Below the pieces are notes generated by a model. It saw only the letters and a list, made by a program, of their open reading frames with translations. It was not told the DNA's origin and did not search any database. From the NCBI GenBank assembly GCA_965237955.1, contig OZ250169.1, positions 4,672,001 to 4,736,000 on the forward strand: a stretch of DNA of 64,000 nucleotides, written 5' to 3'. Shown in pieces: positions 1 through 38,533 of the stretch; positions within the stretch are counted from its first letter, which is position 1; each line of letters begins with the position of its first letter. The stretch comes from Candidatus Marinacidobacterales bacterium. GTDB taxonomy: Bacteria > Acidobacteriota > Vicinamibacteria > Marinacidobacterales > SMYC01. The translations under genes were made by a program, and so were the position numbers.

Positions 1-1
1 G

Positions 2-916
2 ATGGGCGGCCGCGTACCGCTAGGCTATGAGAAGGACGGGCGCACGCTGCGCATCAACGAGGCTGAGGCCGAAACGGTCCGGACGCTCTATGCGCTGTAC
101 CGAAAGCACGAAACGCTCCGGCAGGTGAAGGCCGAGGCGGACCGCCTGAGACTGCGTACCAAGCAACGCTTCACCGCGGATGGAACCCGAACGGGCGGGC
201 TGCCGTTCCGTCGCGGACACCTCCACTGCCTGCTGACCAATCCTCTCTACGCCGGCCGCATCCGGCACCAGAGGCGTGTCTACGAGGGCCAGCATCCATC
301 GATCATTGCTCCGGAGCTCTGGGACGCGGTCCAGGCGCAGCTGCAGGCAGGGGCTGCCAAACCAAGGAGACGCACGACGAAGGGCCGTGCAGCCCGTTCC
401 CCACTGGCAGGCAAGCTCTTCGACGAGACCGGGGACCGGCTGACGCCGAGCCACACCAAAAAGAAAAACGGGCAACGGCTCCGCTACTACGTCTCCCGGC
501 GCCTCATCCAGCACAGTGGCCAAAAGGACCTCTCCGGCTGGCGACTGCCCGCCCCGATGCTGGAACAGACCGTCGTGCATCTCATCCGACAGCATGTGGA
601 TGCCACGACCTTCTCGGCCTCGTTGATCCACACTCCGACGATGCAAGAGCTCGCCTCGGTGCGTCGCTTTTTAGACGGGCTGTGTTCCGGCAGTAATAAT
701 GATAGTGCCTCGGCAGCCCCCCTGCTCCGTCTTATCCGGCGGGTCGACATCAGCCCCGGCTCTGTGTCCATCCTGCTCGACCGCAATGCGTTCGCTGCTT
801 GCCTCTCTATGGGACCCGAACGCATTCGCGAGGATGCACTCCGCATCCTCGCACCGTTCCGCTTGCGTCGACGCGGCGTCGAGACCAAGCTCGTTCTGGG
901 CAACCCCACGAACTGA
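2..916 (+). pseudogene. Large serine (site-specific) recombinase, partial: 5' end outside the window, 3' end cut by an IS3 end
   Basis: MGGRVPLGY, LLTNPLYAGRI..YEGQHPSII, LFDETGDRLTPSHT..RLRYYVS motifs of the recombinase family; the stop codon is supplied by the TGA of the IS3 end at 914. Confidence 0.85.
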
Positions 917-1062
917 ACCGCCCCGGGTTTTCCGGAGACTGTTTTAGTTGAGTCTCGCCATCTCTAGCGAGCCTTCCTGCGACCGATAGTAGTTCATCTC
1001 GTACTCGACCGGAGAGACATTTCCGATCGGCTCCAAGAGTCGTTGCGTGTTGTACCAATGGA
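914..1062 (-). mobile_element. IS3-family right end remnant (IRR plus last codons of orfB)
   Basis: Begins TGAACCGCCCCGGG; near-identical to 6569-6717, where it is continuous with an IS3 orfB fragment. Confidence 0.9.
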
Positions 1063-1065
1063 CCC

Positions 1066-1124
1066 CGTCCTGTGCCAAAACTCGGCCCTTTTGAAATAGA
1101 CCATAAATCAGCAGCTTAGTGTCT
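1066..1124 (+). repeat. rve-element left end, copy 1 (truncated)
   Basis: CGTCCTGTGCCAAAACTCGGCCCTTTTGAAATAGACCATAAATCAGCAGCTTAGTGTCT matches the region upstream of transposase 7708-8778. Confidence 0.95.
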
Positions 1125-1136
1125 ATGGCGCGCTCC

Positions 1137-1203
1137 CGTGAACGGCTTGCCGGGTTGCTACGTTTCTACCATAGGGAAGCCGCATGAGTATTTTGACCTT
1201 ACG
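1137..1203 (+). mobile_element. Right end of a related rve-family IS (last codons plus TIR)
   Basis: Translates RERLAGLLRFYHREAA* (compare [15 protein letters not shown] of 7708-8778), followed by GTATTTTGACCTTACG. Confidence 0.8.
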
Positions 1204-1276
1204 GGCACTCCCACAGGAAACGGGGAGAAACAGATAGGCCGCGCCTACGGAGCACCGTGCCAGCCCTCGACCCTAC
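1204..1276 (+). ncRNA. Group II intron 3' remnant (part of domain 6)
   Basis: Near-identical to the reverse complement of 4539-4611; ends CCCTCGACCCTAC. Confidence 0.85.
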
Positions 1277-1384
1277 CGCGATGGAGCCTGACCAGAAGCC
1301 TGCTGGGCCGGACAGTTCCCCCGCTGATGCCCAGGGTGCCGACTATAATAGTGATGAAGGAGCCTCATCGGTGGGCCTTTTATC

Positions 1385-1460
1385 GGCCCGGTCGCAAACA
1401 CAGACACTAAGCTGCTGATTTATGGTCTATTTCGAAAGGGTCGAGTTTTGGCACAGGACG
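1385..1460 (-). repeat. rve-element left end, copy 2
   Basis: ...CTAAGCTGCTGATTTATGGTCTATTTCGAAAGGGTCGAGTTTTGGCACAGGACG. Confidence 0.95.
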
Positions 1461-1552
1461 GGGTCAGGTCAGCTGAAAGACAGGGTCTGCAAATTGCTGG
1501 CGGAAGAGCCCGGTTTAACGGACCGGAAGACCACCACCGCACTCGGCACATC

Positions 1553-3775
1553 GTGACCGGTGCGGCCAGGCGACAACAGAAAGCGCCAAACCAGGAGGTT
1601 CTGGCTGGCCTCGTCGAGCGGGTGACGTTCCACAACGCCGATAATGGATTCTGCGTTCTGCGCATCAAGGCCCGGGGTCATCGCGATCTTGTGACGGTCG
1701 CCGGGCACGCCGCCATCGTTTCGGCCGGGGAGTGGGTCACGGCAGCGGGGGAATGGGTCAACGATCGCACCCACGGCCAGCAATTCAAGGCGGGCTTCAT
1801 GCGCACCTCGGAGCCATCGTCGATCGACGGCATCGAGAAATACCTTGGCTCCGGCATGATCCACGGCATCGGGCCGGTCTACGCTAGGAAGATGGTCAAG
1901 GCGTTTGGCGAAAAGGTATTCGATATCATCGAGGCCGAGCCGGAACGACTGCGCGAGGTGACCGGCATCGGCCGTGTGCGTGCCAAACGCATCACCGACG
2001 CCTGGGCGGAACAGAAGATCGTTCGCGAGATCATGGTGTTCCTGCACAGCCATGGCATCGGCACGGCGCGCGCGGTGCGGATCTACAAGACCTACGGCGT
2101 GGATGCCGTTCAGGTCATGACCGAGAACCCGTACCGCCTTGCACGAGATATTCGCGGCATCGGGTTCAAGACCGCCGACATGATCGCCATGAAGCTCGGC
2201 ATCGAGAAAACAGCCATGATCCGGGTTCGCGCGGGGATTTCTCATGCGCTCACCGAGGCGATGGACGATGGTCATTGCGGCCTGCCGGCCGAAGAGCTTG
2301 CACCGCTCGCCGTCGAATTATTGGAAGTGTCAAAGGAGTTGGTTCAAGACGCGCTGGACCTCGAACTGGCAGAAGGCACCGTCGTCGCTGCGGCGGTTGC
2401 CGGAACTCCCTGTATATTCCTTGGCGGCCTCTACCGTGCCGAACGGGTGATCGCCGAGAGGGTTCTCCGGATTACGGGCGGCAAGCTTCCTTGGCCGGAT
2501 ATCGATGCCGGCAAGGCGCTACCCTGGGTCGAGGGGAAGACCGGTCTGTCGCTGGCGGCAAGCCAGGCCGAGGCGGTTCGCCTAGCCCTGACCTCCAAGG
2601 CATTGGTCATCACCGGCGGGCCGGGCGTGGGCAAAACGACCATCGTCAACGCCATCCTGCGCATCCTGGCCGCCAAGGGCGTGACCCTGCTGCTCTGCGC
2701 CCCAACCGGCCGCGCCGCCAAGCGGATGACCGAGGCCACCGGGTTCGAGGCGAAAACGATCCACCGGCTACTCGAAGTCGATCCCAAGGGCGGTGGGTTC
2801 AAGCGCAACGGCAACAACCCTCTCGATTGCGGCCTGCTGGTCGTTGACGAGACCTCGATGGTGGACGTCATGCTGATGCAGGCCTTGCTGAAGGCGGTCC
2901 CCGACACTGCCGCGCTACTGATCGTGGGAGATATCGACCAACTGCCCTCGGTCGGTCCGGGCCAGGTACTGGCCAGCATCATCGCCTCCGGTGCCGTCTC
3001 GGTCGTGCGGCTGACCGAGGTTTTCCGTCAGGCCGCGCGAAGCCGGATCGTCACCAGCGCGCACGGGATCAACCGGGGTTCCATTCCCAATCTTTCGAAG
3101 CCCGAGGGCGACAGCGACTTCTACTTCGTGCAGGCGGACAATCCGGAAACCGCGGTGCCGATGATCATCGAATTGGTGAAGACGCGCATCCCAAGGCGCT
3201 TCGGGCTCGATCCGATCCGCGACATCCAGGTACTGTGTCCGATGAACCGCGGCGGCGTCGGCGCCCGCTCGCTCAACATCGAGCTGCAGACCGCCCTCAA
3301 TCCGGCCGGAGAGCGCAAGGTCGAGCGCTTCGGCTGGACCTTCGCGCCCGGCGACAAGGTGATGCAGATCGAAAACGATTATGACAAGGAGGTTTATAAC
3401 GGTGACATCGGCTATATCGACGATGTCGATCCCGAAGTCGGCGAGCTGACCGCGCATGTCGACGGGCGCGCCGTCGCCTATGGCTTCGGCGAGCTTGACA
3501 CGCTGGTTCCGGCATACGCTGCAACCATTCACAAGAGCCAGGGTTCGGAGTATCCCGCCGTCGTCATCCCCGTTCTGACCCAGCACTACGTTATGTTGCA
3601 GCGGAACCTGCTCTACACCGGCGTGACACGCGGCAAACGGCTGGTTGTGCTGGTCGGCCAGAAGAAGGCTGTGGCCATCGCCGTGCGCAATGTCTCGGGA
3701 CGGCGGCGGTGGTCGAAACTGGATGAATGGCTCGGCGATGCGGGAAACCGGCTTGCTCTCTCTTCCGGCAGCTGA
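1553..3775 (+). CDS. recD2: ATP-dependent RecD-like (RecD2) SF1B DNA helicase
   Basis: N-terminal GLVERVTFHN..FCVLR, HhH region, Walker A GGPGVGKT, VVDETSM, YAATIHKSQGSEY, LLYTGVTR; start codon uncertain (the ORF-track start at 1448 lies inside the repeat). Confidence 0.93.
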   Translation: MTGAARRQQKAPNQEVLAGLVERVTFHNADNGFCVLRIKARGHRDLVTVAGHAAIVSAGEWVTAAGEWVNDRTHGQQFKAGFMRTSEPSSIDGIEKYLGSGMIHGIGPVYARKMVKAFGEKVFDIIEAEPERLREVTGIGRVRAKRITDAWAEQKIVREIMVFLHSHGIGTARAVRIYKTYGVDAVQVMTENPYRLARDIRGIGFKTADMIAMKLGIEKTAMIRVRAGISHALTEAMDDGHCGLPAEELAPLAVELLEVSKELVQDALDLELAEGTVVAAAVAGTPCIFLGGLYRAERVIAERVLRITGGKLPWPDIDAGKALPWVEGKTGLSLAASQAEAVRLALTSKALVITGGPGVGKTTIVNAILRILAAKGVTLLLCAPTGRAAKRMTEATGFEAKTIHRLLEVDPKGGGFKRNGNNPLDCGLLVVDETSMVDVMLMQALLKAVPDTAALLIVGDIDQLPSVGPGQVLASIIASGAVSVVRLTEVFRQAARSRIVTSAHGINRGSIPNLSKPEGDSDFYFVQADNPETAVPMIIELVKTRIPRRFGLDPIRDIQVLCPMNRGGVGARSLNIELQTALNPAGERKVERFGWTFAPGDKVMQIENDYDKEVYNGDIGYIDDVDPEVGELTAHVDGRAVAYGFGELDTLVPAYAATIHKSQGSEYPAVVIPVLTQHYVMLQRNLLYTGVTRGKRLVVLVGQKKAVAIAVRNVSGRRRWSKLDEWLGDAGNRLALSSGS

Positions 3776-3848
3776 TCCAGGAAGTGCGGTCGCTAGCGGC
3801 GTGCGGCGGTGGTTGCCGGTGGCCCTGCTGGTGGTCAATGGATGGTAC

Positions 3849-3977
3849 TGGATCTGAAGATAGCACCCTCGGGCCAGACGATTGTAAAGCCCACGGCCCT
3901 TGGCCCGGTCGCAAACACAGACACTAAGCTGCTGATTTATGGCCTATTTCAAAAGGGCCGAGTTTTGGCACAGGACG
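3849..3977 (-). repeat. rve-element left end, copy 3 (complete 129 bp non-coding end)
   Basis: Matches 8778-8906 and stops at the position equivalent to the transposase ATG. Confidence 0.95.
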
Positions 3978-4369
3978 ACATACATTGGGATCCTTTACTG
4001 GCGGTTGCAGTCATAGGTGTGATGGCCTTGCAGGCATCGCATGCGAGAAGTGAGGTTCGAGCGAGAATTGAAGCGCAGATTCTCACCGCAGCGGAGAAGC
4101 TCAACGATGCAGAGTTGGAAGCGGAGAAAAAAGAACTGGTCTCGGATTTAATTCTCGCCGGACTCGTCGGCTGCACTTGGTGGGAGCCCAACGGCCAAGC
4201 GAGGGCGTCGGCGCTGGCAATGCTACTCGAGCAGCTGGCGGAAGGCGATTCGTCTCCGGTGTTCTTAAGAAGCAGGCTCTTTATCCTGCGCTTGTATGAC
4301 GCCCTTCCCGTGAGTCAGGCACGACAATTCTGGCGTGTGCGGAATTTGTTGCGACGGATGAAGTCGTAG
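3978..4369 (+). pseudogene. C-terminal fragment of an unknown helical protein
   Basis: Open frame of about 130 codons with no native start; it begins exactly at the repeat tip. Confidence 0.55.
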
Positions 4370-4451
4370 TGGTGCTTCTGTCATCAGAGGTAAGGGCAGT
4401 CTGTAAGGCGGACGCCCTGGGGGTATTGTCTGGCTGCCGGTCGACCGACCT

Positions 4452-4506
4452 CGTCCTGTGCCAAAACTCGGCCCTCTTGAAATAGACCATAAATCAGCAG
4501 CTTAGT
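4452..4506 (+). repeat. rve-element left end, copy 4 (truncated)
   Basis: CGTCCTGTGCCAAAACTCGGCCCTCTTGAAATAGACCATAAATCAGCAGCTTAGT. Confidence 0.95.
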
Positions 4507-4538
4507 TGTGATCCGCAAAAAAGAAAATCGCGTACCCG

Positions 4539-5440
4539 GTAAGGTCGAGGGCTGGCGCGGTGCTCCGTAGGCGCGGCCTATCTGTTTCTCCCCGTTTCCT
4601 ATGGGAGTGCCTCACTAGCCGCACCGTAAGTCCGTTTCCAGCCCCCGCCACATCGCACGCAGCGTGCGGCTTTCCCGCACTACGCGCTCCTGCACACTTC
4701 CCGCGAAGGGTTATGTGACCTATCGAGCCGGGGCGTCTTTCGGCGAATCTACGAGATATCGAACTCGGTAATCTGTGAACAGTCCGACAGTCGCCTACAT
4801 CCATCGCCTGCTCCATCGCTTCCAGCCGAAACCTTGGCGCAAGAAGCGCCAAGACTTCTCGGCCTTCGCCTTGACGTATATCCTTCATCTCAGCTCCTGC
4901 AGAGTGATGGGTGATTTTGTCATCTCACCCCTGCCTCGCTTGTTGACGAAGGAGTTGTGTGCAGCAGGGCCCCTTTGCTCCACGGGCGTTGCCCCGTTTC
5001 AACGCTACTACGGACCCAGCCGCCACCGTCTCGTCTTCAACCGTTTTCCCGGGGCCTCCGGTTATGCGGTCTACCTTGCTCCGTCGATTTCTCGACGGGA
5101 CGAGGACGGCTTCTCCAGTTGCTTGGCATGTCCTTGTCACCGTGCTGTCCCTACCACCCCGCCAGAGGGATGTGCCTCATCAGATAGTCTGGCGACACAT
5201 CCCTGTTGCCTTCGTCCGACACGAGAAAACTCGGCCTCTGGGGTCTATTTTTTTGTCGGGGCCACCTATGGGTTCACTTGTGTTACGGCCCGGTGACTCG
5301 CTCACCATCCTCAAGATGGCTTTGTCAGTCAGCTTCATCCGTCTCGTTTCCTCCACGAACGTGACTCAAGCTACGGGGCGCTAACTTTTTCCCCGGTGGG
5401 ACTCTCTCCCACTGAACATGCCAGCCTTCGCTGGACGCAC
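4539..5440 (-). ncRNA. Group II intron ribozyme, effectively ORF-less (902 nt)
   Basis: 5' GTGCGTCCAG at 5440; D5-like GCGCGTAGTGCGGGAAAGCCGCACGCTGCGTGC at about 4655-4687; 3' end CGACCTTAC; remnant of the intron-encoded protein (IEP) inside. Confidence 0.9.
4720..4923 (-). pseudogene. Internally deleted group II intron reverse transcriptase/maturase remnant
   Basis: MTKSPITLQELR*RIYVKAKAEKSWRF fused to LRQGFGWKRWSRRWM*ATVGLFTDYRVRY, resembling the N- and C-termini of bacterial IEPs; two in-frame stops and no RT core. Confidence 0.8.
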
Positions 5441-5938
5441 TCGTGTCCAAAAATACAAACGAACTCTAAGACCCGCGCGCCGGGACGTCGCCGAGTTCAT
5501 CTATCATTATCATGGAGAGTGCAACCATCAAGGGCTTGGCAACACGTTTGTATTTTGGACACGACGGCATCGCTTATGAACCACTCTCATCGCAGCCTCC
5601 TTCACGTCGCACCGGCGTGGAGCCCACGAACTTGTAATCTAATAGACGCGCTCAACAATCCAAGCTGGATAGAAAACGCAATTTGGGGTACGCGCAGGAC
5701 TCCCAGCCAAACTTGACAACGGGCTCAGTCGCACCAACGTTGAGCCGACCTCTGAGCCGGTGCCATCTACAGAGACTACCGCGTTTCATTCATACGGGGT
5801 GGCCGTCAGGCCGTGAAAAACTTGACAGTACCATCCGAAACGCTCCGGCTGATGCAAGTCTTGAGTTCGTTCGTGTTTTTTGACACGACGCGCTCACTCA
5901 AACGATTGTGCGGCCGGCAGCGAAAATGTAGCGGGCGC

Positions 5939-6199
5939 CTAAGGGAGTGGACCGATCCGACCGGGAGCCTCGAAACTTCGGGCTCGCTTCCAAGCTCTCA
6001 TGAGCTCATCCTGATGTTGAGAGGCCCACTCCACAACGAGACCGGTCGCGCGAGCGGGAAGGCGGCCTGCCGTCAGCGATAGCGTCTCGATGGCAAAGAG
6101 AGCCTCGTCGGACCCGTAATACGCATGGAAATGAGGAGGGGCATGATCGTTGAAGAACATCCGCACGACGATGCCATAAAACCGGCTTAGCTCAGGCAT
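5939..6199 (-). CDS. DUF4160 family protein (putative toxin)
   Basis: MPELSRFYGIVVRMFFNDHAPPHFHAYY...VVEWASQHQDEL..W family pattern. Confidence 0.85.
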   Translation of the reverse strand: MPELSRFYGIVVRMFFNDHAPPHFHAYYGSDEALFAIETLSLTAGRLPARATGLVVEWASQHQDELMRAWKRARSFEAPGRIGPLP

Positions 6200-6482
6200 C
6201 TACATCGGCGACCGATATTCGAGGAAAAACCTCCTCCGGCTTCTTTCCGGTTAGCTCGAGGTAGATGCTGTCCGGGCATAGCTCGATGTCTTTGTTCCAC
6301 GCGATGCTTCCGTGGGGGCTCACGTGGACGGTCTCGAAGAATGCAGGATCACTCCACGACGAGAATATGCCCTTGCCGACGAAGGGAATGAGGTCCACCT
6401 CGCCTTCGGTGCCATCCTCGTAACGCACCCAAATCTTGTACTTGGGCAACGCTCGAACTTCGCGAACCTTCAACATGCCCAC
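6192..6482 (-). CDS. DUF2442 family protein (putative antitoxin)
   Basis: V..L..YKIWVRYEDGTEGEVDL...GSIAW..IELCPDSIY pattern; overlaps the DUF4160 gene by 8 nt. Confidence 0.85.
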   Translation of the reverse strand: MGMLKVREVRALPKYKIWVRYEDGTEGEVDLIPFVGKGIFSSWSDPAFFETVHVSPHGSIAWNKDIELCPDSIYLELTGKKPEEVFPRISVADVDA

Positions 6483-6568
6483 ATTGTAGCACCTCCGGCT
6501 GTGCCTTCTATATATTCATCCACGCGCACCGAACTTGATCAGTCTCCGGTCTGCCGGCAGAAACAGAC

Positions 6569-7075
6569 TGAACCGCCCTGGGTTTTCCGGAGACTGTTTT
6601 AGTTGAGTCTCGCCATCTCTAGCGAGCCTTCCTGCGACCGATAGTAGTTCATCTCGTACTCGACCGGGGGGACATTTCCGATCGGCTCCAAGAGTCGTTG
6701 CGTGTTGTACCAATGCACCCACTCGAGGGTGGCGAACTCGACGTCCTCAGGACCACGCCAGGGCCCGCGTCGACGGATCACCTCGGTCTTGTAGAGGCCG
6801 ATGATGGATTCAGCCAAAGCGTTATCGTAAGAGTCGCCTCGGCTGCCGACGGACGGCTCAACACCCGCCTCGGCGAGCCGCTCGGTGTAACGGGTCGAGA
6901 CGTACTGCACGCCGCGATCGCTGTGATGCACCAATGGATCTTCTGGGTTTAGTCGGCGCTCGTGCAGCGCCTGCTCCAACGCATCGAGAGCGATGCCGGC
7001 AGTCAACGATGTCGTCGCTCGCCAACCGACGATGAGTCGAGCGAAGATGTCGATGACGAAGGCGACATACACGCC
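6569..7075 (-). mobile_element. IS3-family element, 3' fragment (orfB integrase core plus IRR)
   Basis: VYVAFVIDIFARLIVGW, HHSDRGVQY, GDSYDNALAES, WVHWYN..R motifs; IRR ...GGCGGTTCA. Confidence 0.93.
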
Positions 7076-7440
7076 AGAAGTCGACATCAGAGGCGGACAG
7101 CAAGCTCGCCATCGTCTCGTCTGCGTCGAAGAGTTCGACACCGCGCATAGCATGGAGACAAATTCGCAGTCCAACTCGCCCGGGAAGGCTCTTCAAGCCA
7201 GTTACAAGGCTCCTCGTACGATCTCGATCTAGAATCGCGGCCTGAGGCAAAGAGTCCATCAGCACTCGAACTAAGAAATTAACACCTCCGTGGCCTTCGT
7301 TCTGAACGTGCCCTTCAATAGACGGCACTTCGGAATCGTTGCAGTCATAGTCGTCTGCAATCAGGTCAAGTTCCGATTGCAGTTCAAGAGCGGACTGCAA
7401 TTCAGCGATTGCTAAGTCGAGAATCCGTCCGGCGCGATCC
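7076..7440 (-). pseudogene. Internal fragment of a large protein, possibly SIR2/DSR-like defence protein
   Basis: Open frame (SIEGHVQNE..VNFLV..LPGRVGLRICLHAMR..LFDADE..VDFW) cut at both ends by mobile-element sequence; family assignment is from recalled resemblance only. Confidence 0.4.
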
Positions 7441-7580
7441 CGTCCTGTGCCAAAACTCGGCCCTTTTGAAATAGACCATAAATCAGCAACTTAGTGTCTG
7501 TGTTTGAAATAGACCATAAATCAGCAACTTAGTGTCTGTGTTTGCGACTGGACCAAGGGCCGTGGGCTTTACAATCGTCT
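7441..7580 (+). repeat. rve-element left end, copy 5, with an internal 38 bp tandem duplication
   Basis: TTTGAAATAGACCATAAATCAGCAACTTAGTGTCTGTG at 7465-7502 and 7503-7540. Confidence 0.95.
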
Positions 7581-7707
7581 TGGGCGGGCGGGTCGTCACC
7601 ATGCAGATGACCACCTAGTCGAGAGCGAATATCGAAGCGTGTTCCTGAAGCGGTTTCCACGCTACGCCGGTCGAGCCCGCCGAGGGGCTACCGTCGCCGG
7701 CGACCAT

Positions 7708-8778
7708 CTACGCGGCACGGCAGTAGTAGTTGAGAATGCCCCCAAGTCGCTCTCGCGACACGATGGGGCCAGCGTCATTCGCGCTTGCCGGCAGAGGTGT
7801 GAGGAGCTCGTTGCCGAGACCTTGGTGGTTCCGTTCTGTGTGATAGTGCACTACGTATTCGGTTACTGCTGTGCGCAGGTGTCGCTCACTGAGAGGTACG
7901 AAGCGGTCGAGACACTCTCGACGTATGGAGAGAACGAATCTTTCCGCATATGCGTTCAGATTCGGACTATTAGCGGGAAGGCGAAGGGGCTTCACGCCTG
8001 AATCTCTCAACAGCCCACGTACCGCCTCGGTGAATAGCGGGTCTCGGTCGTGGATGAGGTATCGCTTGCCAAGGAGGAAACCATCCCACATGTCAGTGAG
8101 GTTTCTTGCCACCTGCTTCATCCACTCCCCGTTGGGGTCCGACGTTATCCCACCGATGCACACGCAGCGAGTGGCGATATCGATGACAAACAGGACATGG
8201 TAGCGGACGAGCCCGAACGGGTTCACAACCTCGACGGTGAACAGGTCTGTCGCAGCGATGGCACCCCAATGAGCCTTGATGAAGGTGCTCCACGACATGC
8301 TCCTGCCCCGCTCCGGCGCAGGAGCAATACCGTGCTCGGCGAGGATCCTCTTGATAGTGTTGCGTCCGAGTTCATGTCCTAGGTTCTTGAGTGCGCCTCG
8401 CAGGCGCGTATATCCCCACGTCGGGTTCTCCCGCGCCACGCGCACAATGAGCTCACGGATGTCCTTCGCCGTCGGAGGTCGGCCTGGACTCCGGTTCTTG
8501 CTGCCATCGTACTTGGCTGCGATGAGGTGGCGGTACCAGCGCAGAAGCGTAGCGGGTGTGGCAACGGACGCAATCTGGGCCAGCGCCTCGCGGCCCAAAG
8601 CCTGGGCCTTGACCGCGAGCCTGCGCCGGTCGTCGTCCGAGAGACTGAGACGCTTGCCCCGAAGCCCGGCTCGGAGCACACGGTTCTCCTCTTGCAGGTA
8701 GTCGATCACATCCTGCTGCTGGCGGTTGACCCAGCCAGCTAGAACGAGCAGTAGGAATTGCACGTGGTACGTCATCAT
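7708..8778 (-). CDS. Integrase-core (rve) DDE transposase with N-terminal HTH, IS481-like/unclassified; appears intact
   Basis: [24 protein letters not shown] (D), LIHDRD (D), NAYAERFV (E), [19 protein letters not shown]. Confidence 0.92.
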
Positions 8779-8906
8779 GGATCTGAAGATAACACCCTCG
8801 GGCCAGACGATTGTAAAGCCTACGGCCCTTGGCCCCGGCGCAAACACAGACACTAAGCTGCTGATTTATGGCCTATTTCAAAAGGGCCGAGTTTTGGCAC
8901 AGGACG
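8778..8906 (-). repeat. rve-element left end, copy 6 (native position upstream of the transposase)
   Basis: Directly abuts the transposase ATG; tip reads GAGTTTTGGCACAGGACG. Confidence 0.95.
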
Positions 8907-8909
8907 GGG

Positions 8910-9058
8910 TGCATTGGTACAACACGCAACGACTCTTGGAGCCGATCGGAAATGTCGCCCCCGTCGAGTACGAGATGAACTACTATCGGTCGCAGGAAGG
9001 CTCGCTAGAGATGGCGAGACTCAACTAAAACAGTCTCCGGAAAACCCGGGGCGGTTCA
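8910..9058 (+). mobile_element. IS3-family right end remnant
   Basis: Inverted copy of 914-1062, ending CCCGGGGCGGTTCA. Confidence 0.9.
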
Positions 9059-9174
9059 GGACATCGCCGCCTTGAACTTCTGGGAGACTTTCCGATACGT
9101 CCTTCCCCGCACCACGATGGCCAGGAAGTGGTCGGGGGTCAAGGTGTTCAGAAATAGTGGGAGGATTTTCAAGA

Positions 9175-10266
9175 ATGAGAAAACTACTTTTACTCTTTGG
9201 ATTAACATTATTGATTTCTTGTGTGGGAGTCAAAGTTCAAGATCGGGATACCAGTTCAAAGGCTATAGCTGAGGTAACTCAAACAACTTCAGAAAGCTCG
9301 GCAAATGAAGATACGGTGGCAGACACTTGGGGACAAATTATCGAGGCTCCACCAGAGACATTCTTTGCAGCAGACTTGTCTGATGATGTGCGTAGCGGTT
9401 TAACCAATACATTGCTTGTAGCAACTTCTGAATGGGGAAACTACGGCCCGCTGGAGTATTGGGTGCTGGGGACGGATCTAAAGGCCGCCCAGGAGCTTAC
9501 TGAACTCTTCTGCGAACGTCGCTCAGAGCTTGGGCAGTGGGAAAAATCTGAATGTTTAAGTCGTCACAGGGACGAGCATGACTTTGAGTCCTATCGGAAG
9601 ATAGGCGCTGATGCCATTGAACGTAGGAAGGCGAGTGGCTCCATGGGCTGGAATGGTAATCGAGAATGGGGTATTCATTTTTATACCTCTTCGTATCCTC
9701 TCGGCTTTGATAGACTTTTTGGTTCAAGTCCAGGAGGGGAGCAAAAAGGCGTATTTCATGAGTACTTTCACGCAGTACAGCAAGCTCACATTTTTGCTCA
9801 AGATAATGATGAAAGGAAAGCACTCTCGGGACTCGTATGGTTTATAGAAGGTGGAGCTGACTACATGGCGCAAACTGCTACCAGAAAGTTGTGGGCTTCA
9901 GGTAAGTTGACCACGATCGACAATAGTAGTTTAAGCTCCCTCGAACAGACCTTTGAAAACAAAATGAAGAAGGGTAAGAAGACGATCGAAAAGAACTGCC
10001 CTGGGGTCAAGTTACATGAACTTACTTACGACAATGATTGTTCGGGTGCGGCCTATGATTTGGGTGCCTGGGCAATGGGTTATCTGCTAAACAAGGTAGG
10101 CCAGGAAGCGCTACTAGACACCTTCTATCCCAGTCTCAACGAACTTGGGTGGGAGGGAGCGTTCCAAAAAACCTTCGGGATGTCATCGGAGGATTTCTCC
10201 GCCGAATTTAACCTCTTCTTGGAAAAACCTCTTGCCGATCAATTGGCCATACTTCCCAAAATATGA
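9175..10266 (+). CDS. Putative lipoprotein zinc metallopeptidase (HEXXH), horizontally acquired
   Basis: Signal peptide with lipobox LLISC, HEYFH plus downstream WFIEGGADY; RBS GGAGG; visibly lower GC than the host. Confidence 0.75.
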   Translation: MRKLLLLFGLTLLISCVGVKVQDRDTSSKAIAEVTQTTSESSANEDTVADTWGQIIEAPPETFFAADLSDDVRSGLTNTLLVATSEWGNYGPLEYWVLGTDLKAAQELTELFCERRSELGQWEKSECLSRHRDEHDFESYRKIGADAIERRKASGSMGWNGNREWGIHFYTSSYPLGFDRLFGSSPGGEQKGVFHEYFHAVQQAHIFAQDNDERKALSGLVWFIEGGADYMAQTATRKLWASGKLTTIDNSSLSSLEQTFENKMKKGKKTIEKNCPGVKLHELTYDNDCSGAAYDLGAWAMGYLLNKVGQEALLDTFYPSLNELGWEGAFQKTFGMSSEDFSAEFNLFLEKPLADQLAILPKI

Positions 10267-10309
10267 CTAGAAAAGATGCTGCTAGCCTACCAGCATATCG
10301 AAGGAGTCT

Positions 10310-10548
10310 GTAAGCGAGTACCGGGAGTTCGTCCAACTTCGGCTGCGTAAGCGGGTACTGGAGGCGATCGAGGTCGTGCTCGAGGAAGAAGTCAACCAAG
10401 CGCTGGGGTGTGGTAGCTACGAGCGTGCGGAAGACCGCCGTGGATATCGCAACGGAGCCGAAACCCGTCGCGTGACGACGTCGGTGGGAACTCGCGAGCT
10501 CCGGGTGCCACGAGCCCGCGTGCGAGACGAGGAAACGGGAGAAACGAT
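10310..10548 (+). pseudogene. IS256-family transposase N-terminal fragment
   Basis: LEEEVNQALG..YER..RRGYRNG..R.VTTSVG..ELRVPR motif; cut by the IS5 TIR. Confidence 0.8.
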
Positions 10549-11634
10549 GCCTTGGTGCACAACTCCGATAGAGGCCGAGAGCTCGCTTGGCCCCGACTCC
10601 CATCATCCGATCATCTCGCTATCAGGCATCCCGAGCGCCGTCATCGTGTTGAGAATCTTGCACCCGATCCTTGCCTCGACTCTCTGTGCCGCCAACCCTC
10701 TCGCTCGCATCGCTGAGCCCACGATAGCCTTGTAGCGATGGAACGTTGTCTCGACTTTGCTCCGTTTGCTGTAGCCCGATTCTGTGTGCCACTTTCGTTT
10801 GCCGAGCCGAGCTTGTGCTGCAATGTTGCGATTGCGCTGTCGGCTGCTCGCCGGCCCCGATGCGAGCTGGGCGCCCTTGCGCGGCGGTATCAGCACCCTC
10901 GGCGAGCAATGAGCGCTGTGATTCTCGATTGCCTCATAGACGCCGCCGGCGTCGTATGCGGTGTCAGCTCTGGCCGATGAGATGGGACTGTCGATCTGTC
11001 CGACAAGCGATGCAACCCGCGATGAATCGCGGGCTCTTTTGCTCGTCAGCTCGCCGGCGACGACTTCGCCACTCTGCTCGTCGACACACAGATGGAGCTT
11101 GCGATAGTCCCTGCTCTTTGGTGCTCTGCGCAGCTGGCCGGCGTGGACAGCGAGACCGCTGCTGTCGATCAAGATGTGCAACGGCGTCTTCTGCTTGTCT
11201 TGGTAAGAAGGGGACCTTACCCAGCTTCGCCTTGCGCCTCGAGATCGTGGTGTGATCGGGCACATCATTGTCTAGCTTCATCAGAGCGAACAACGATCGC
11301 AGCAATCCCTCGCTCTGCCTAGATGACAGATGAAACACCATGCCCAGGGTGACAGCCGTCTCGATGGCGTGGTTCGAGTACTTGCGTTGACGGCCCGGTT
11401 TCCTCCTCCTTGGCCGGGGCGCGTCCCAGTTCACAAGCTTGCCGGCGGTGAGCGAGATCCAGACGGTCAGGCTCCCACGGTTGCGTAGACCCGCCTCATA
11501 TTCACGCCAATTCCTCACGCGATAGGCCTTCTTCACATACTTCCGCTGAGTGCGTTTGAAAATGCTCATGGGGAACCTCGAATCCGTGAGTAAAGGACAA
11601 TTGTGGCCCGAGATCGCGAGTTGTGCACCAAGGC
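10549..11634 (-). mobile_element. IS5-family (IS903-like) element with frameshifted transposase (10603-11569)
   Basis: 17 bp perfect TIR GCCTTGGTGCACAACTC; YRVRNWREYEAGLRNRGSLTVW, PDHTTISRR, IDSSG, YRKLHL, GYSKRSKVET; one extra base near 11206 splits the ORF. Confidence 0.92.
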
Positions 11635-12971
11635 ACACATACACCGGCAAATCACATGGCCGAGAGACCCGAAGAGCCCCCCGGATGTCTTCCCCGTCAC
11701 GGGGTCAAAAAGGCCGATGGTCTGGTCAGGGTTGTTGGGAGTGTCGTCAATAAACTCCTTCCACTGCCGGTTGTACTTGACGTCCAGAATGGTGTCATCG
11801 CCAAACAGATGCGTGAAATTGAAATTCAAGATCTGCTGGTTCCGGTGGTGGCTGTTCCAGGTCTCCGGGCTGTCGGCGTTACCAAAACCCACACGGAACG
11901 GATAAACATCTAGGTCCCGAGTTGTCAACGAGCCGTGAAGCCGGGTGGCCGCGGCCAACTGAGCCGTGACCTTGACGAAGGTATGGGTCTGATTGATCTC
12001 GAATGGCTGGGTGGGGAAGAAGGGTTCTTGCAGCTCGTGGTTCAGCCGACGGATATTGCCGAAGAACCAGATAGTATCTCGCTTGATCGGTCCCCCAAAC
12101 GTTCCGCCTATGTCCTGGTCCTTGACCACACTCGATCCGACCCCGATTTGCTTCTCGAGCTCGGGCGTGAGGTTGTCCCACTCCGTGCCTTCGCCCTGGT
12201 AGTAAATGTACGCTCCACCGGTGAAGTCGTTCCCTCCTGACTTGGTCACGAAGTTGAAAACCCCACCGGGGGCCATGCCAAACTCCGCCGTTTGACCCGA
12301 GGTCGTGACCTGGACTTCCTCGATCATGTCGATCGGGATTTCCGTCAAGATGTAGCCGACCACGGTGTCATTGGCAACCGCTCCATCGATGGTGTACAGG
12401 TTGGCCCGGGGGTCGCTCCCGTGAACCGTTTGTGCCGGAGCGAAAAGATACTCAGAATCCAGGACGCCCGCCATCGACGTGAGGAGATCGTCATAACTGC
12501 GTCCCAGGGGGGATGTTCTCGAGCCGCTCCTGCTCGAGCGTCCGCATCGCCTGCGCGCTCTTGACATCGAGGAGCGGCGTTTCTCCAATGACGGTCACGC
12601 GCTCCTGCAGTCCGGCCGGGGCCAGTTGCGCATCCACCGCAATGAACTGCCCGGCACGCACGATCACCTCTTCAAAGGTGACGGTTCCAAATCCTCCCAA
12701 CTCCACCACCACGGTATAGTGGCTCGAGGGTGTTAGCCGCTGGACACGGTAGGTACCCTCCATGGTGGTCACTCGAAGTTCGGTCGAAATGTGCTGTGGA
12801 CTCGAGATCGTCACCGTCGCGCCCGGTACCGCAAGCCCCTGCGGATCCGTGACCGTGCCGTAGATGCCTCCCGTGATTTCCTGCGCGAAGGCCGCCCCGC
12901 AGGCCAGCACAAGGGCCAGCGGCACCACCATCAAAGCGCGTCGTGGTGGCCCACCTGGAGCAATTGCCTTA
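11635..12971 (-). pseudogene. TonB-dependent receptor (carboxypeptidase-regulatory-like N domain plus plug), truncated and frameshifted
   Basis: AQEITGGIYGTVTDPQG..VPGATVTI, IEEVQVTTSGQTAEFG..GGVFNFVTKSGGNDFTG, GGPIKRDTIWFF; frameshift in G6 at 12507-12512; cut by IS5 and ISAzo13. Confidence 0.85.
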
Positions 12972-14897
12972 GGGCCGGCGACAAAATAAGTTCCCGTTTT
13001 CAAGACGGTCGGATGGTGTAGTTCCATTTGGGTAGAGTCTGGTCCTTTGTAACGGAAAGCGCCTGCATCCGCTCGTCAGTGATTTTGACGCCCTTCGGAT
13101 AACGACGCCGGATAAGGTGTGCGCGTACTCGCAAACCGGAAGAGGTGGTGGTCGTGCGGATGTATTTGAGGATGGTTTCGTAGCTGTCGAGAGGCCTGCC
13201 CGCCCAGTTCTTGCTGATCTCGCTGAACAGACGGTGCTCCACTGGATTCCACTTGGATGTACCGGACGGATAGTGGGCTATGGTGATAGCGATGTCGTGG
13301 CGATTGCAAATCCGCGTTTGAAGCCCGTGCTTCCAACCCCGACACCGATAGCCATTGCTGCCCCCGGCGTCTGCCAATATCGCGAGGTCACGGGCTGCAG
13401 GATAGCGTCGCCGTCCTTCCGTTCGCCACCACTTCTCGATGGCATTCACGGCGAAGTCCGGGGTGTTGTACGAGGTACCAATGAACACTGTCCCGCGGTT
13501 CGCGAGCAGATCGTAGACGCCGTAGGGGATTGCGATGCCGTTCGATTCGGAACGGAAGTCATGGTCTTTGACGAGAGTCGGCTCGCGGTTCCAGGCCTGC
13601 CCGCCGTTTTTGAATAATCCCACCAGCTCCCGTTTCTTCGTGTCTACGCTGATGATGGGATGACCAGCTGCGGCAAAACGCTCGCGCAGTTCGGCGATAC
13701 ACGCGAATTGGGTATCGCGATCTTCGGACGTGGCACCGCACAGCTTCTTGTGGTTCACCCGCAACGAGAAGCCGAGCTGTTTGAGCAGTCGACCGACGGT
13801 TTTGCTGCTGACGTTCACACCGAGGCTTCTTAGCTCGCAAGCAATCTTGTCGGTGGTCCGCCGCGTCCATTTCACTCCCGTCATCGGATCGCCCGCGGTG
13901 TCGTGCTTCATGAGTTCTTCGATCTTGGCGATGACTTCTGGCGTTTTTTTTGCACGGCGCGCCGTCCGCCACCCTTTCGCCGAACTCCGTCGAGCTCAAC
14001 ATCTCTCATTAGTAATTCCCTACGACCTCTGGCTACCGTGCTCGGATCCATCCCGAGCAGTTCGGCAATCTGTTGGTCGCCACCGTGACCGAGCTTCATG
14101 GCCTCGACTCCCGCGTAGAGACGGCGCTGCTTTTCATCGAGCAGGCTGTAGAAAAGAACGATCGCAGCCTTCAACTCCACGGGGAGCACGCGGACTCCCC
14201 CGACCCAGCCCAACGTGGAAGGTGACGCCTCATGTACCTGGCGGGCCGAGAGCTGTTGCTTGCGCGTGCTCACATCGGTGGCCAGATACAGATATCGGCC
14301 GAACACCTGCTCGCGCGCCAATCTTTTCTCTCGGACCAGTTTCAACAGAGGAGCCTTGACGTCAACCTGCACCTCGTCCTCGAGCTCGTCGACGTAGTAG
14401 CCTGCCTCACAGGCCGCGACCAACGCTTTTACCGTCGCAAGCAACGTCCCGTACTTCGAGAACCACACTGAGCGCAACGACCAAAGACCTTTTCGATCGA
14501 ACTGGGCGATCTCGTCCAACGTGTAGTAGCTACCACGGTGGGAGTAGCTTGTCCGATACGCCAACTCATTGAGCTTTCGGAAGACGGTCGAGTCCACATC
14601 GGTACCCAACACTGCCTTCAAATCATCGAGGGTAGCTATTTTGTGCTTCCTCAACAGGCGGTCGAGATCTTCAGACTGATAGCTCGTAGGTCTCATAATA
14701 GGAGAAGTGCTCCTTGATAGGCGTAATCCTCCCTAAAATGAGGACCGTTCGTCAAACACGCGCTGGTTGCTGAAGATCTACAAATGTTCCGTTTCTAGGG
14801 AGCTTGCCAGGCTCTCGTGATGCCAGACGACATCGCGATCACGACCTGAAACAGGAAGAGTGTGCTCAAAACCAGACAGTTATTTTGTCGGCGGCCC
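12972..14897 (-). mobile_element. ISAzo13-family element; two ORFs (13908-14696 and about 13000-13950) joined by a probable -1 frameshift
   Basis: TIR GGGCCG(G/C)CGACAAAATAA at both ends, each flanked by TA; TAGDPM..KWT, ISVDTKKRELVG, HYPSGTSKWNPVEHRLFS; A8 slippery run at 13944-13951. Confidence 0.92.
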
Positions 14898-17458
14898 TAA
14901 GTGCGGACGTTGAATAAGCCGTACAACGCGGCGATGCTGAAGAGCACGTTCGGGGCCCACGCCGCCATGAACGGCGGCAGCATTGCCGTTTCACCCATGA
15001 ACGCGAAGATACGCGTGGTCACGTAGTAGGAAAGACCGATCGCGATCGCGATGCCGATCCCGTAGAGGGCACCCTTCTTCCCTGGTGCGAACGAGAACGG
15101 CACGCCGATGAGCACCGTGACCATCGCTGCGAGCGGGAACGAGAACTTGGCTTGCCGGGCCACTTCGAGCGGAACCACGTCGTAGCCGGCCTGCTTGAGA
15201 TCCTCTACATAGCGAGTCAGCTCGAGGTAGGTCATCTGATTGGAGCGTTTTTGCTCCTTGACGAAATAGGACGGGGGCTCCATGTCGTGCACCGGAAGCG
15301 CCTCGAAGCGCTCGATCTGCCGACCTTCGGCGAAGTTGCGCTTCCACCCTTTGCTGAACACCCACGCGCCGATGTCGGACTCCCACTTCGCCTCCTCGGT
15401 GTAAAACCGCTCGGTGATCTCGAAGGGATTCGTAGCGTATTTGTAGACGGCGAGCCCGCTGAACTTCCGTGAGTTGGGATCGTAGTAGGCGTAGTTGTAG
15501 AGCTCCTGGCTCTCTCCCATCATCCACTTGCGGTTCAAAACGTTGTGCGTTTGGACCGGACGCTTTTTGATCTCGTCCCGAAGCTCGGCGGCGCGCCGGT
15601 TGGCGTAGGGAAGGAGGTATTCCTGAAGCGCGAAACAGCCCGCGCTCACGACCACACCCATGAGGACCACGGGCACCGCGAGTCGATAGAGGCTGATGCC
15701 GCCGGCCTTCGCTGCTGTCAGCTCACTCGTCTTCGTCAAAATCGCGAAGCAAACCAGCGTCGCCATGAGCGTTGCGAGCGGGAGCATATGAAATAAGATC
15801 TGCGGCTGGGCGAACGCGAGGTACTCGAGAACGACTTTCCCTTGAATGTTGTGCTCGAACGCGTCCGCGATCACATCGATGAGGAGCCCGAGCATGTACA
15901 CGCTCACGAGCGCCGCGAGGATGAGAAGAAAAAAGCGGGTGAACTCCCGGCTGATGTAGCGGTCGAGCGTGTTGGGAAAGCGCAGGCTCATACGGAGCAA
16001 GATCACGAAGCAAACCAACGTTGCCACGAGCGTTGCGAGCGGGAGCATGTGAAAGAAGATCTGCAGTAGGGCGAACGCGAAGTTAACGAGAACGACTTTC
16101 CCTTGAAAGTTGTTCTTGAACGCGTCCGCGATCACATAGATGAGGAGCCCGCTCACGAGCGCGGCGAGGATGAGAAGAAAAAAGCGGGTGAACTCCCGGG
16201 TAATGTAGCGGTCGAGCGTGTTGGGAAAGCGCAGGCTCATGCGAGGGATGCGGAGCAGGATCACGGTGCGGCTCCGGGGGTGCTGTGAGCTCTTTCGCAA
16301 CGAACGGAGCTTCGAACCGAGCAGGGGCCACAATGTGTCGACGCCGAACAAACCTCGCTGGGATTCGCGGGCGGCGCGAACCAGAAGTGCTATCGCCCCT
16401 GCACCAAGGACGATGTTCGGAGTCCACATACCCCAAAACGGCGACAAGCGTTCGCCGATTGCCATGTTCTCGCCAACATCGATGAGGACGTAGTAAATGA
16501 AAATGACGGCGAGGCTCATGACGAAGCCCCAGGAGCGGCCGTCGCGCCGGTTGCGAATCCCGAGAGCGAGTCCTAAAACTCCGAACACGAAGCACGCGAA
16601 TGGGATGGAAAACTTCTTGTGGATCTCGGTCAAGTAGACGGGAAGCTCGGTCTCCCGATAGGACGTACGAAGCTCGGCAAGGCTGAGCTCGCGCGCGCCT
16701 CGCGGCACGTTGATGTCTTCGGGCGGAAAGAACGTTTCCGTCGGAAGCGGCAGGAAGATCTCCTTCGATAGCTGGCGTTGATACTCCGCGGGCCGGCGGT
16801 GCGAGACTTGATGGAGCTCCGCGTCCCGCAAGTAAAACATGACCGTCCGCGCCTCCGGGTCGATGAGGAGCCGTCCCTGGTCGGCGAACGTCACCCGCGG
16901 GGATTGGGGCTCGGACAAATCAGCAAGAATGACGTTTTCCCAATAGTCCGAGTCTGTCGGTGTATCGAGAACGAGGAACATCAGATTCGGGAAGAGGCGA
17001 TCGTAGAACACCCGCGGTCGTACTTCCGTCCCGGCGTGAGACGTCAACACCTTGAAGAACAGCTGGCGCACCCGCTGATTCGAGTCCGGTAAAACGTTGA
17101 TGATGAGGTAGGAGGTCGCGCCCCACGCGAGGGTGGCGGCGACGAGGATTGGTGTGAGCAAGCGATAGAGGCTCACGCCGCTCGCGCGCATCGCGATGAT
17201 CTCGCTATCGGCGGCGAGGCGCCCGAGCGCTATCAGGACGCCCAGCAGAAACCCCATCGGGATCGTCAGGCACAGGACACTGGGCAACAAGTTCAACAGG
17301 ATGCCGAGCGTGTCCGAGAGCGACGCGGACTGGGTGACCAGGCGCTGCGCGAAACGCAAGATCTCGTTCAGGAGAATGACGAACGTGAAGACGCAGATTC
17401 CGAGGATGAAGCTCGGGATGATTTCCCTGAAGACGTAGCGGTCGAGGATCCGCATCAT
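14897..17458 (-). CDS. lptFG: Fused LptF-LptG LPS export permease with an internal 83-codon duplication
   Basis: Two YjgP/YjgQ halves (RILDRYV..., TLDRYI...), DSEIIAMRASGVS and TSELTAAKAGGIS, AAWAPN. Confidence 0.9.
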   Translation of the reverse strand: MMRILDRYVFREIIPSFILGICVFTFVILLNEILRFAQRLVTQSASLSDTLGILLNLLPSVLCLTIPMGFLLGVLIALGRLAADSEIIAMRASGVSLYRLLTPILVAATLAWGATSYLIINVLPDSNQRVRQLFFKVLTSHAGTEVRPRVFYDRLFPNLMFLVLDTPTDSDYWENVILADLSEPQSPRVTFADQGRLLIDPEARTVMFYLRDAELHQVSHRRPAEYQRQLSKEIFLPLPTETFFPPEDINVPRGARELSLAELRTSYRETELPVYLTEIHKKFSIPFACFVFGVLGLALGIRNRRDGRSWGFVMSLAVIFIYYVLIDVGENMAIGERLSPFWGMWTPNIVLGAGAIALLVRAARESQRGLFGVDTLWPLLGSKLRSLRKSSQHPRSRTVILLRIPRMSLRFPNTLDRYITREFTRFFLLILAALVSGLLIYVIADAFKNNFQGKVVLVNFAFALLQIFFHMLPLATLVATLVCFVILLRMSLRFPNTLDRYISREFTRFFLLILAALVSVYMLGLLIDVIADAFEHNIQGKVVLEYLAFAQPQILFHMLPLATLMATLVCFAILTKTSELTAAKAGGISLYRLAVPVVLMGVVVSAGCFALQEYLLPYANRRAAELRDEIKKRPVQTHNVLNRKWMMGESQELYNYAYYDPNSRKFSGLAVYKYATNPFEITERFYTEEAKWESDIGAWVFSKGWKRNFAEGRQIERFEALPVHDMEPPSYFVKEQKRSNQMTYLELTRYVEDLKQAGYDVVPLEVARQAKFSFPLAAMVTVLIGVPFSFAPGKKGALYGIGIAIAIGLSYYVTTRIFAFMGETAMLPPFMAAWAPNVLFSIAALYGLFNVRT

Positions 17459-25308: not shown

Positions 25309-25324
25309 CTGCCACTCAAAAACA

Positions 25325-25400
25325 AACGCAAAGACGCAAGGGCGCAAAGAAACCGAGCTCTTTGCGTCTTTGCGTCTTCGCGCCCCTGCGCCTTTGCGTT
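25325..25400. repeat. Octamer-based inverted repeat hairpin between convergent genes
   Basis: (CGCAAAGA/GG)n followed by (CTTTGCGT/CC)n. Confidence 0.85.
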
Positions 25401-25405
25401 TTTTT

Positions 25406-38463: not shown

Positions 38464-38533
38464 CGAACCTCCTTTCGTGAGCGAACGAACTGAAGACTAT
38501 AGTAGGAATTGGACTAAGGATCAATTCTGCCTT

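Follow-up and report, generated by a model that had tools for sequence, protein, structure and literature searches.

Solo ends of an abundant IS481/IS3-like insertion sequence in Candidatus Marinacidobacterales and a candidate single-end route of joining

The island and its full-length element

The DNA analysed here is a stretch of 64,000 nucleotides (the window) from a Candidatus Marinacidobacterales bacterium, positions 4,672,001 to 4,736,000 of contig OZ250169.1 in assembly GCA_965237955.1. The source genome (G000) is 8.13 Mb in length and consists of one contig. The window contains six exact occurrences of a 19-nucleotide sequence, here called the tip, at 1066(+), 1460(-), 3977(-), 4452(+), 7441(+), and 8906(-), where 0.03 would be expected by chance. 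The tip is the terminus of an insertion sequence (IS), and the subject of this report is that IS and the manner in which its ends appear to be joined to new DNA. An earlier reading made from the letters of the window (the sequence-only reading) had correctly located the six copies and had taken them for solo left ends that partition an integron-like array.

The parent element is 1,428 bp in length (approximately 1.43 kb), has a single open reading frame (ORF) of 356 amino acids, and is present in 23 full-length copies in G000. The tip is found at both ends of all 23, and of 26 out of 26 full copies at loci of related genomes, and is thus not a left end only. The termini of these full copies are CGT...ACG, with AGT in one, and the left and right terminal repeats (IRL and IRR) are nearly identical along approximately 102 bp. 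The full-length element of the window (7441-8906) is 1,466 bp, which is the 1,428 bp of the parent and a 38-nucleotide duplication inside the right end. Because every full copy has the tip on both ends, the native right end of the window element is copy 5, 38-nucleotide duplication included; it is not the second left end by which the transposase had been thought to be closed.

A Pfam scan of the transposase identifies HTH_32, HTH_21, and rve_3 (integrase core) domains. The residues D178, D244, and E279 (D-35-E) are invariant among 18 aligned homologues, and 20 of the 21 full-length transposase genes in G000 retain the open frame and the triad. The predicted structure is of moderate confidence (pLDDT 68), with IS21 IstA and retroviral integrases as its best Foldseek matches; a sequence search of the PDB gave no match below E 0.07. 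The top NCBIfam match is NF033577 (IS481) at E 5e-29 and 101.7 bits with a cut-off of 224, and NF033516 (IS3) matches at 82.9 bits with a cut-off of 160. By its sequence, the element is an IS481/IS3-like DDE insertion sequence that is very abundant. The nearest transposase matches (97-99%) are in metagenome-assembled genomes of Ca. Marinacidobacterales, while some relatives at 34-38% (Streptomyces, Bradyrhizobium plasmids) seem to begin with TGT. At E 1e-80 the transposase is present in 8 of 301 genomes of the phylum, a count that scores six candidates per genome and is no census. The family is spread over many phyla, with at least 7,998 database proteins scored.

The features of the island are listed in Table 1. 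Copies 1 to 4 extend inward for 62, 76, 129, and 55 bp, copy 5 carries the internal 38-nucleotide duplication, and copy 6 sits on the full element. Their inner ends had been described as ragged; the extents do differ, but copies 1 and 2 each end inward at a fixed type of junction, and the inner joint of copy 3 is recurrent. The outer flank of copy 3 is different at every locus seen. The recD2 ORF begins with a TTG start inside tip 2, and its profile match covers residues 54-761. A 215-bp inverted repeat, made of the IS3-like right end and the tip 1 region (913-1127), is repeated at 8845-9059.

Between the tips lie recD2, a gene fragment, a group II intron, and a Dsr1-like fragment (NF041818 at E 2e-6, PADLOC Dsr1 at E 2e-5), which the sequence-only reading had listed as a defence-like fragment beside the other items. 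These items are unrelated to each other, but they are not one per segment, since the segment between copies 4 and 5 holds at least six different pieces (other ends, an intron without a reverse transcriptase (RT) gene, a DUF4160/DUF2442 pair, and an IS3 remnant). Nor is the intron in pieces. It is 902 nucleotides long with both ends present, and it is inserted within the terminal GA^CG (the caret marks a joint here and below) of a sibling CGT-type tip. The DUF4160/DUF2442 pair is 99% identical in a second genome (G021). The site to which tips 1 and 6 are joined can be seen unoccupied in the 505-bp IS3-like remnant.

The gene behind the 3978-4451 remnant is at least 629 codons long and is whole and tip-free in G015, and the gene behind the Dsr1-like piece is more than 1,100 codons long and is whole and tip-free in G018. 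The remainder of each is absent from G000. Judged by these alignments, the "cassettes" other than recD2 are leftovers of genes cut by tips, and the idea that tips placed back-to-back or in direct order capture cassettes is not borne out.

Table 1. Coordinates of features in and beside the island (window positions unless stated).
Feature	Position	Strand	Remarks
Large serine recombinase gene, 3' part	2..912	+	Pfam Recombinase; cut by IS3-like end
Recombinase derivative (54-bp end, small upstream ORF, recombinase)	G000 4,670,828 to window 912		starts at seventh tip
IS3-like right end	914..1065	+	AYCC site is target of copies 1 and 6
Tip copy 1 (MITE left arm), 62-bp end	1066..1127	+	inner junction common to 16 tips
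MITE (miniature inverted-repeat transposable element), 395-bp, two-tip, non-autonomous	1066..1460	.	interior with group II intron 3' end at about 1204-1278
Tip copy 2 (MITE right arm), 76-78-bp end	1385..1460	-	inner junction common to 7 tips
recD2 helicase ORF	1448..3775	+	TIGR01448 874 bits, cut-off 500
Tip copy 3, 129-bp left-end type	3849..3977	-	inner joint fixed, recurs in five loci
Remnant between back-to-back tips 3 and 4 (474 bp)	3978..4451	+	gene 3' end
Tip copy 4, 55 bp	4452..4506	+	adjoins end of another repeat family (TGTGATCCGC..., 4507)
Group II intron, 902 nt, no RT gene	4539..5440	-	Rfam RF02003 above cut-off, RF00029 weak
DUF4160/DUF2442 gene pair	5939..6482	-	beside sibling tips (5566, 5890) and other repeat end (6500)
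IS3-like remnant, 505 bp	6569..7073	+	recurrent in G000
Dsr1-like (sirtuin defence) gene, internal piece of about 120 codons	7074..7440	-	cut on right by tip 5
Full-length element	7441..8906	-	copy 5 native right end, copy 6 native left end; no target duplication
Transposase, 356 aa, single ORF	7708..8778	-	HTH domains and integrase core
Second IS3-like right end	8907..9058	-	outer flank of copy 6

Tips across the genome and the units they bound

The sequence-only reading had called for a genome-wide census of the end and its flanks. It gives 508 tips in G000 with up to two mismatches, 403 of them exact, and most are not on full-length copies. The six in the window do not form a distinct set. 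A seventh tip lies 1,172 bp to the left of the window and is the start of the island, and the genome has 30 non-overlapping clusters with six or more tips per 8 kb, of which the window is one. The median spacing of tips is 2.1 kb. The orientations of successive tips (++ 123, -- 102, +- 141, -+ 141) are random. The window is therefore one of approximately 30 rubble fields and not an ordered array.

Tips are confined to approximately 30% of the chromosome. Twelve of the 508 fall outside 25 tip-dense bins of 100 kb, compared with 24 of 70, 24 of 50, 114 of 220, and 46 of 64 ends (34-72%) for four other IS. The tip is present in nine of 30 relatives, with 200-470 copies in six of those. Several sequencing runs that contain the window stretch carry the label sponge metagenome; runs X10 and X17-X19, with little or nothing of the stretch, were left out.

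Fragments of the terminal repeat nearly always keep the tip, with 471 of 488 starting at positions 1-5 of it and 17 elsewhere. The 457 tips that are not on full-length elements can be sorted into 174 inner-junction classes, 119 of which have one member. In the large classes, the outer flanks are distinct in 75 of 80, 16 of 16, 15 of 16, and 14 of 15 members. Sorted by inner neighbour, 39 classes adjoin a different repeat at its terminus, 28 run into a repeat, 15 stay within the same IS, and 92 lead into low-copy DNA. Breaks into repeat interiors show 0-1 nucleotides of microhomology in 18 of 27 cases and 11 nucleotides in the 80-copy class, a test that could not judge the 92 of 174 classes with low-copy DNA inward. 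The ends may have been shortened from inside by insertions of other IS and by blunt internal deletions.

The largest class has 80 tips with 75 different outer 12-mers. It is composed of a 54-bp tip fused by the 11-nucleotide microhomology to a two-gene module that ends in a large serine recombinase. The small ORF upstream of the recombinase is presumably DUF2924-like. The recombinase part has approximately 33 copies, and the far end of the module is closed by varying tips at 3.4-3.9 kb.

Inward-facing tip pairs fall into 12 recurrent unit families in 77 of 464 cases, and nearly every flank differs. The families include the IS itself, MITEs of 134, 317, 329, 345, and 395 bp, and the serine-recombinase units of 3.4-3.9 kb. 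The short families have 15, 6, 5, 3, and 3 units, and there are seven of the 3.4-3.9-kb units. G000 has six copies of the 395-bp MITE, 391-395 bp in length, and their 12 flanks all differ; the MITE is also present in G013, G008, and G015. We infer that two-tip units without a transposase are mobilised in trans by the cognate transposase, because they share the tips and the target motif with the IS and 20 intact transposase genes are present.

The recD2 gene of the window belongs to one such unit. It is 96-99% identical along most of its length in four of the five related genomes searched. In G013, which is of another genus, the unit from tip 1 to tip 3 has the same left flank and a new right flank. 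In G015 the unit is internally deleted and both flanks are new. At the G008 locus, the flank to the left of the MITE is new, and the joint of tip 2 lies inside recD2, 273 bp farther outward, at ACCC^ACT. Because the unit of MITE, recD2, and copy 3 is found again in other genera, where its outer flanks are new, these comparisons support the existence of trans-mobilised cargo units bounded by inward-facing tips. The sequence-only reading had rightly anticipated action on the ends in trans. None of the larger tip pairs of the window recurs in G000.

At the G013 locus (L080), the MITE-recD2 unit is joined to the 9059-10010 side of the window via the 215-bp inverted repeat, the arrangement that an inversion of 913-9059 would produce.

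Four other end families, TGTGATCCGC, TGTGCTCCGC, TGTGCCTTC, and the sibling CGTCGTGTCC (window 4507, 5566, 5890, and 6500), have 65-156 copies each. Their ends lie inside the tip-dense bins in 88-97% of cases, and their flanks are biased. No recurring full-length unit longer than 700 bp was found for these families in G000.

Target site, missing duplication, and other features

The outer flanks of the tips are strongly biased. At positions -4 to -1 the preferred nucleotides are A (67%), C/T, C (89%), and C (76%), and left and right ends are alike. The C at -2 is present at 91% of 108 left ends and 80% of 65 right ends, and an A or T at this position is present in 4 of 508. Empty alleles (131 junctions with at least three alleles each) have C/A, G, and T at +1 to +3 past the cut and are flat from +4. 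The target consensus is one-sided and reads AYCC^NGT.

No target duplication beyond chance accompanies the joints. In 88 two-tip units, 79, 6, and 3 have a match of 0, 2, and 3 bp, compared with 79.4, 6.2, and 2.3 in shuffled pairs; lengths up to 30 bp were tested. Long direct duplications surround none of the 464 inward pairs. A clean empty site could be rebuilt for 0 of 24 testable two-tip units of G000 and for 0 of 197 testable inward pairs. In the same genome, empty sites were rebuilt for 15 of 18 IS21-like copies (6-7 bp) and four of seven IS3-like copies (3 bp). The IS5-like element gave 0 of 12, and the ISAzo13-like element has a single testable copy. For the IS5-like, ISAzo13-like, and 505-bp IS3 references, direct duplication counts were discarded in favour of the empty-site test, since each reference either had uncertain boundaries or was a fragment. 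In that test the 734- and 1,017-bp references are partial elements, and five other end types are without a recurrent full-length unit.

The partner side of the target is missing as well. The CC expected at the partner end reaches at most 14% for staggers of -8 to +12, versus 73% seen. No mirror half-site was found within 110 bp at 141 empty targets (cut score 2.2, best mirror -3.2), and no reciprocal partner junction is conspicuous at any fixed offset from -40 to +40. Two full elements replace target DNA, with 1,152 and 706 bp lost (L001 and L004), and in both the two flanks lie in one repeat. At a third locus (L129) two tips are 12 bp apart, each with its own target motif.

Distant relatives were collected at 36 loci (34-86% identity), of which 25 have recognisable ends; the other 11, whose ends were weak or missing, were left out. 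The 25 show the same flank bias. Twenty are without a duplication and five have a 2-bp match, none being longer; some ends were mis-trimmed by the script, including one of these five.

The inner joint of copy 3 at 3849 (ATCC^AGT) is the exact site of a tip joint in another copy (G000 460,797). It is the best motif match among joints without a tip and is possibly a reciprocal or precise-loss product.

The RT-less intron of 900-902 nucleotides has three complete copies (in the window and near 2,041,985 and 2,998,914 of G000), all between the GA and CG of a sibling tip. The 6-mers that follow its 3' end start with CG in 18 of 24 distinct cases. An RT frame was sought up to 2.6 kb upstream of 43 such 3' ends and none was found. 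This intron possibly homes into IS tips.

To the right of the island, the window contains an IS5-like element (10548-11635) that has 80 full copies across the whole chromosome and likewise shows no duplication. A peptidase-like gene at 9148-10162 (Peptidase_M9, weak and below cut-off) has a second copy, 96% identical, at G000 4,146,561. Two direct repeats (154 bp at 88% and 94 bp at 96%, approximately 250-260 bp apart) at 15737-16243 appear to be a partial gene duplication. Intergenic repeats with heptamer or octamer units (GCCATCA/GCCGTCG type and TTTGCGTC type) occur in both orientations at 25318-25403, 38524-38647, 50633-50794, 56014-56119, 61136-61184, and 62054-62212.

Interpretation and known systems

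The one-sided motif and the absence of a partner site suggest that each end is joined singly to new DNA, that no target duplication is made, and that the target's other side is lost. This is the reading favoured here, and it is probably correct. Transposase would be supplied in trans by the approximately 20 intact copies. The tip would be nicked after its ...ACG-3' end, and the 3'-OH would be transferred alone to a site that looks like the junction between tip and flank (ACN^GGRT on the transferred strand). The branched product would then be resolved by replication into a deletion or a fusion, and relocation of a unit would take two separate joints, or one joint and homologous recombination at a shared repeat. 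Nearly every such event would be destructive, and tips would therefore be confined to dispensable islands.

A broader proposal is tentative. It holds that the CGT-ended clade lacks paired insertion altogether and has a one-ended, flank-swapping transposase of the integrase type that shreds genomes and shuffles cargo across genera (recD2, the serine-recombinase module, MITEs). Under this proposal, any DNA with a tip of approximately 20 bp could be joined to AYCC^NGT, and about a third of the chromosomes concerned would be in permanent rearrangement.

One-ended or adjacent-deletion activity had been suggested by the sequence-only reading, and the joints do look like this. Simple one-ended insertion was tried and rejected, since the lost target side is found inward of the tip in 29 of 258 cases versus 31 in the control.

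Several points weigh against single-end joining. The basis is finished genomes, in which no event was watched, and the route of whole units to new sites is inferred from them. Pairs with nested flanks, expected from repeated outward deletion, are in no excess within end classes (0.0032 versus 0.0033). The tip-dense bins were drawn from the tips themselves, and their dispensability is deduced; 10 of 54 tRNA genes lie inside them versus 16.5 expected. Homologous recombination also swaps flanks, as via the 215-bp repeat in G013, and the 0 of 12 clean sites of the IS5-like element means that loss of duplications is not unique to the tip family. Five of the 25 distant members have the 2-bp match, several of them fitting AY[SS]RT, and normal insertion with a 2-bp duplication may occur as a rare event. 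A study of IS3-family deletions (10.1101/2023.06.07.543989) states that "sloppy" attack would not by itself explain them without a further resolving step.

The strongest competitor, though unlikely, is a two-ended IS of the ordinary kind, which would have lost its duplications afterwards through repeated adjacent deletion and through homologous recombination among approximately 500 near-identical ends and other repeats. It can draw on the recombination visible between G000 and G013, on the IS5-like result, and on the AY[SS]RT matches in some pairs, and both causes of erasure are documented in one account (PMC11708052). Recombination, however, conserves the set of tip-flank joints, so that partner half-sites should be found, yet none appears at any of the staggers tested. 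Nor should a symmetric two-ended reaction favour CC on the kept side alone. The IS21-like and IS3-like copies of the same genome have retained their duplications, and the distant relatives in other phyla lack them in the same way as the tip family. In a core-matching strand exchange, the tip junction would instead trade flanks with a similar-looking site; a CC overlap of 1-2 nucleotides would come from the donor, and the joint would be reciprocal and scarless. The crossover cores of IS110 or IS607 are a precedent for a donor-carried overlap. The lost target side does resemble the tip at +1 to +3, the inner joint of copy 3 scores highest among tip-less joints, and differences between tip flank and empty allele at -1/-2 are changes to C in 10 of 11 cases versus 4 of 26 at -20 to -5. 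Preferred use of C-bearing alleles could also explain these changes. Tip-less joints show no clear enrichment for the motif: those scoring at least 5 number 8 of 123 (2.2% expected), three of the eight being variant or sibling tips missed by the filter, and the transposase core is of the retroviral DDE type and not a serine or RuvC recombinase, which makes this exchange improbable.

The integron-like reading, with solo left ends as the borders of cassettes that are captured and reordered locally, is very improbable. The recD2 cargo does move with its bounding tips and segment borders do carry tips, but the ends are not left-specific, their orientation is random, and 30 clusters are equally dense. 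Three of the segments are destroyed genes. The mobile unit is set by the inward-facing tips 1 and 3 and not by the direct copies 2 and 3, and the larger pairs of the window are not recurrent. Least credible of all is that the assembly is chimeric at a high-copy repeat. In its favour are the great abundance of the repeat, a genome contamination estimate of 6.2%, and the absence of any listed public contig that covers the whole stretch. Against this, the repeats are 55-130 bp long in a single-contig genome, and 913-3977 is colinear at 98.5% in G013 (3,075 bp, copies 1 to 3 included). The positions 3849 and 7074 are crossed by contigs of other runs (3557-3894 and 3671-3894 for the former, 7018-7460 for the latter), and the tip is found in nine other genomes, at 200 or more copies in six. 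Recurrence of the junctions in independent data thus makes a chimera unlikely. Of the two outcomes that the sequence-only reading had named as fatal to itself, chimeric junctions and ends always sitting on full-length copies, neither has come about.

A transposase of the integrase type is expected to insert the two ends of its element jointly and to leave a duplication. Single-end joining at a short asymmetric site, if true, would mean that the same chemistry can take another path, and would explain both the megabase-scale rubble fields and the passage of recD2 between genera at 96-99% identity. If the ordinary two-ended IS is the truth, the locus is an IS graveyard with MITEs and of modest significance.

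Prokaryotic IS481 elements have the termini TGT...ACA. The element resembles them in its single ORF of approximately 350 amino acids, its HTH domains, its D-35-E core, and its terminal inverted repeats. It differs in scoring below the profile cut-off of NF033577, in its CGT...ACG ends, in repeats of approximately 102 bp, and in its one-sided target. An account in PMC10045372 gives TGT termini for IS481EU, and IS481 target duplications of 2-15 bp, mostly 6 bp, none of which is seen here (88 units at chance, 0 of 24 clean sites).

The IS3 copy-out-paste-in pathway (IS629/IEE model) relies on the same integrase fold. Its first step is described as an asymmetric one-strand transfer that may miss the partner end and give deletions, and "sloppy" attack of a single end on non-end DNA is proposed for deletions in that family (10.1101/2023.06.07.543989). 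The element has one open frame without the orfA/orfB frameshift and lacks the 3-5-bp duplication of IS3. The Pfam domain taken as a proxy for the IEE protein (AEP-TOTE, PF22548) has no match in G000. No abutted end-to-end junction with a spacer below 12 bp was found in 31 genomes, none of 8 bp or less in JGI metagenome contigs, and none was listed in four runs; for assemblies this proves little, because such junctions are unstable and are dropped by them. The single-end joint, a sloppy event in IS3, seems to be the usual outcome for the tip family.

MITEs, mobile insertion cassettes (MICs), and Tn3-derived inverted-repeat miniature elements (TIMEs) normally carry the target duplication of their parent. 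The units described here are like them in having two inward-facing IS ends, no transposase, varied flanks, and in some cases cargo (the recombinase module, recD2). They are unlike them in that the window family has no target duplication and most of its ends are unpaired.

In one-ended systems (ISEcp1, IS91, and one-ended transposition of Tn3), one specific end drives the reaction. The telomeric transposons described in 10.1101/2024.11.13.623437 are a one-ended system that needs a telomere. Such systems keep both target sides or need a telomere, whereas in the tip family the lost side is not inward and both ends are equivalent.

Rearrangements linked to IS without a duplication (IS5-deletion and IS481-duplication) are reported in PMC11708052, where missing duplications are attributed to recombination, adjacent deletion, or rearrangement-linked insertion at breaks. 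They are alike in placing IS copies at rearrangement joints. As presented there, these cases are exceptions beside normal copies, whereas no normal copy was found in the tip family and each end has a strict motif.

Integrons share with the island a superficial look, that of repeats between unrelated genes. The tips have no common orientation, however, and the segments are not intact single-gene cassettes. No integron integrase (IntI) is present among the 17 ORFs of 1-14,700 scanned with Pfam, a scan that was not extended genome-wide.

In the literature searched, which excluded ISfinder/TnPedia, subscription journals, and supplements, no description of CGT-ended, duplication-free elements was found. 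Among known systems, the element is best placed, from its sequence, in the IS481/IS3 superfamily with MITE and MIC derivatives. The local array is ordinary rubble, and it is the joint chemistry of the family that appears unusual.

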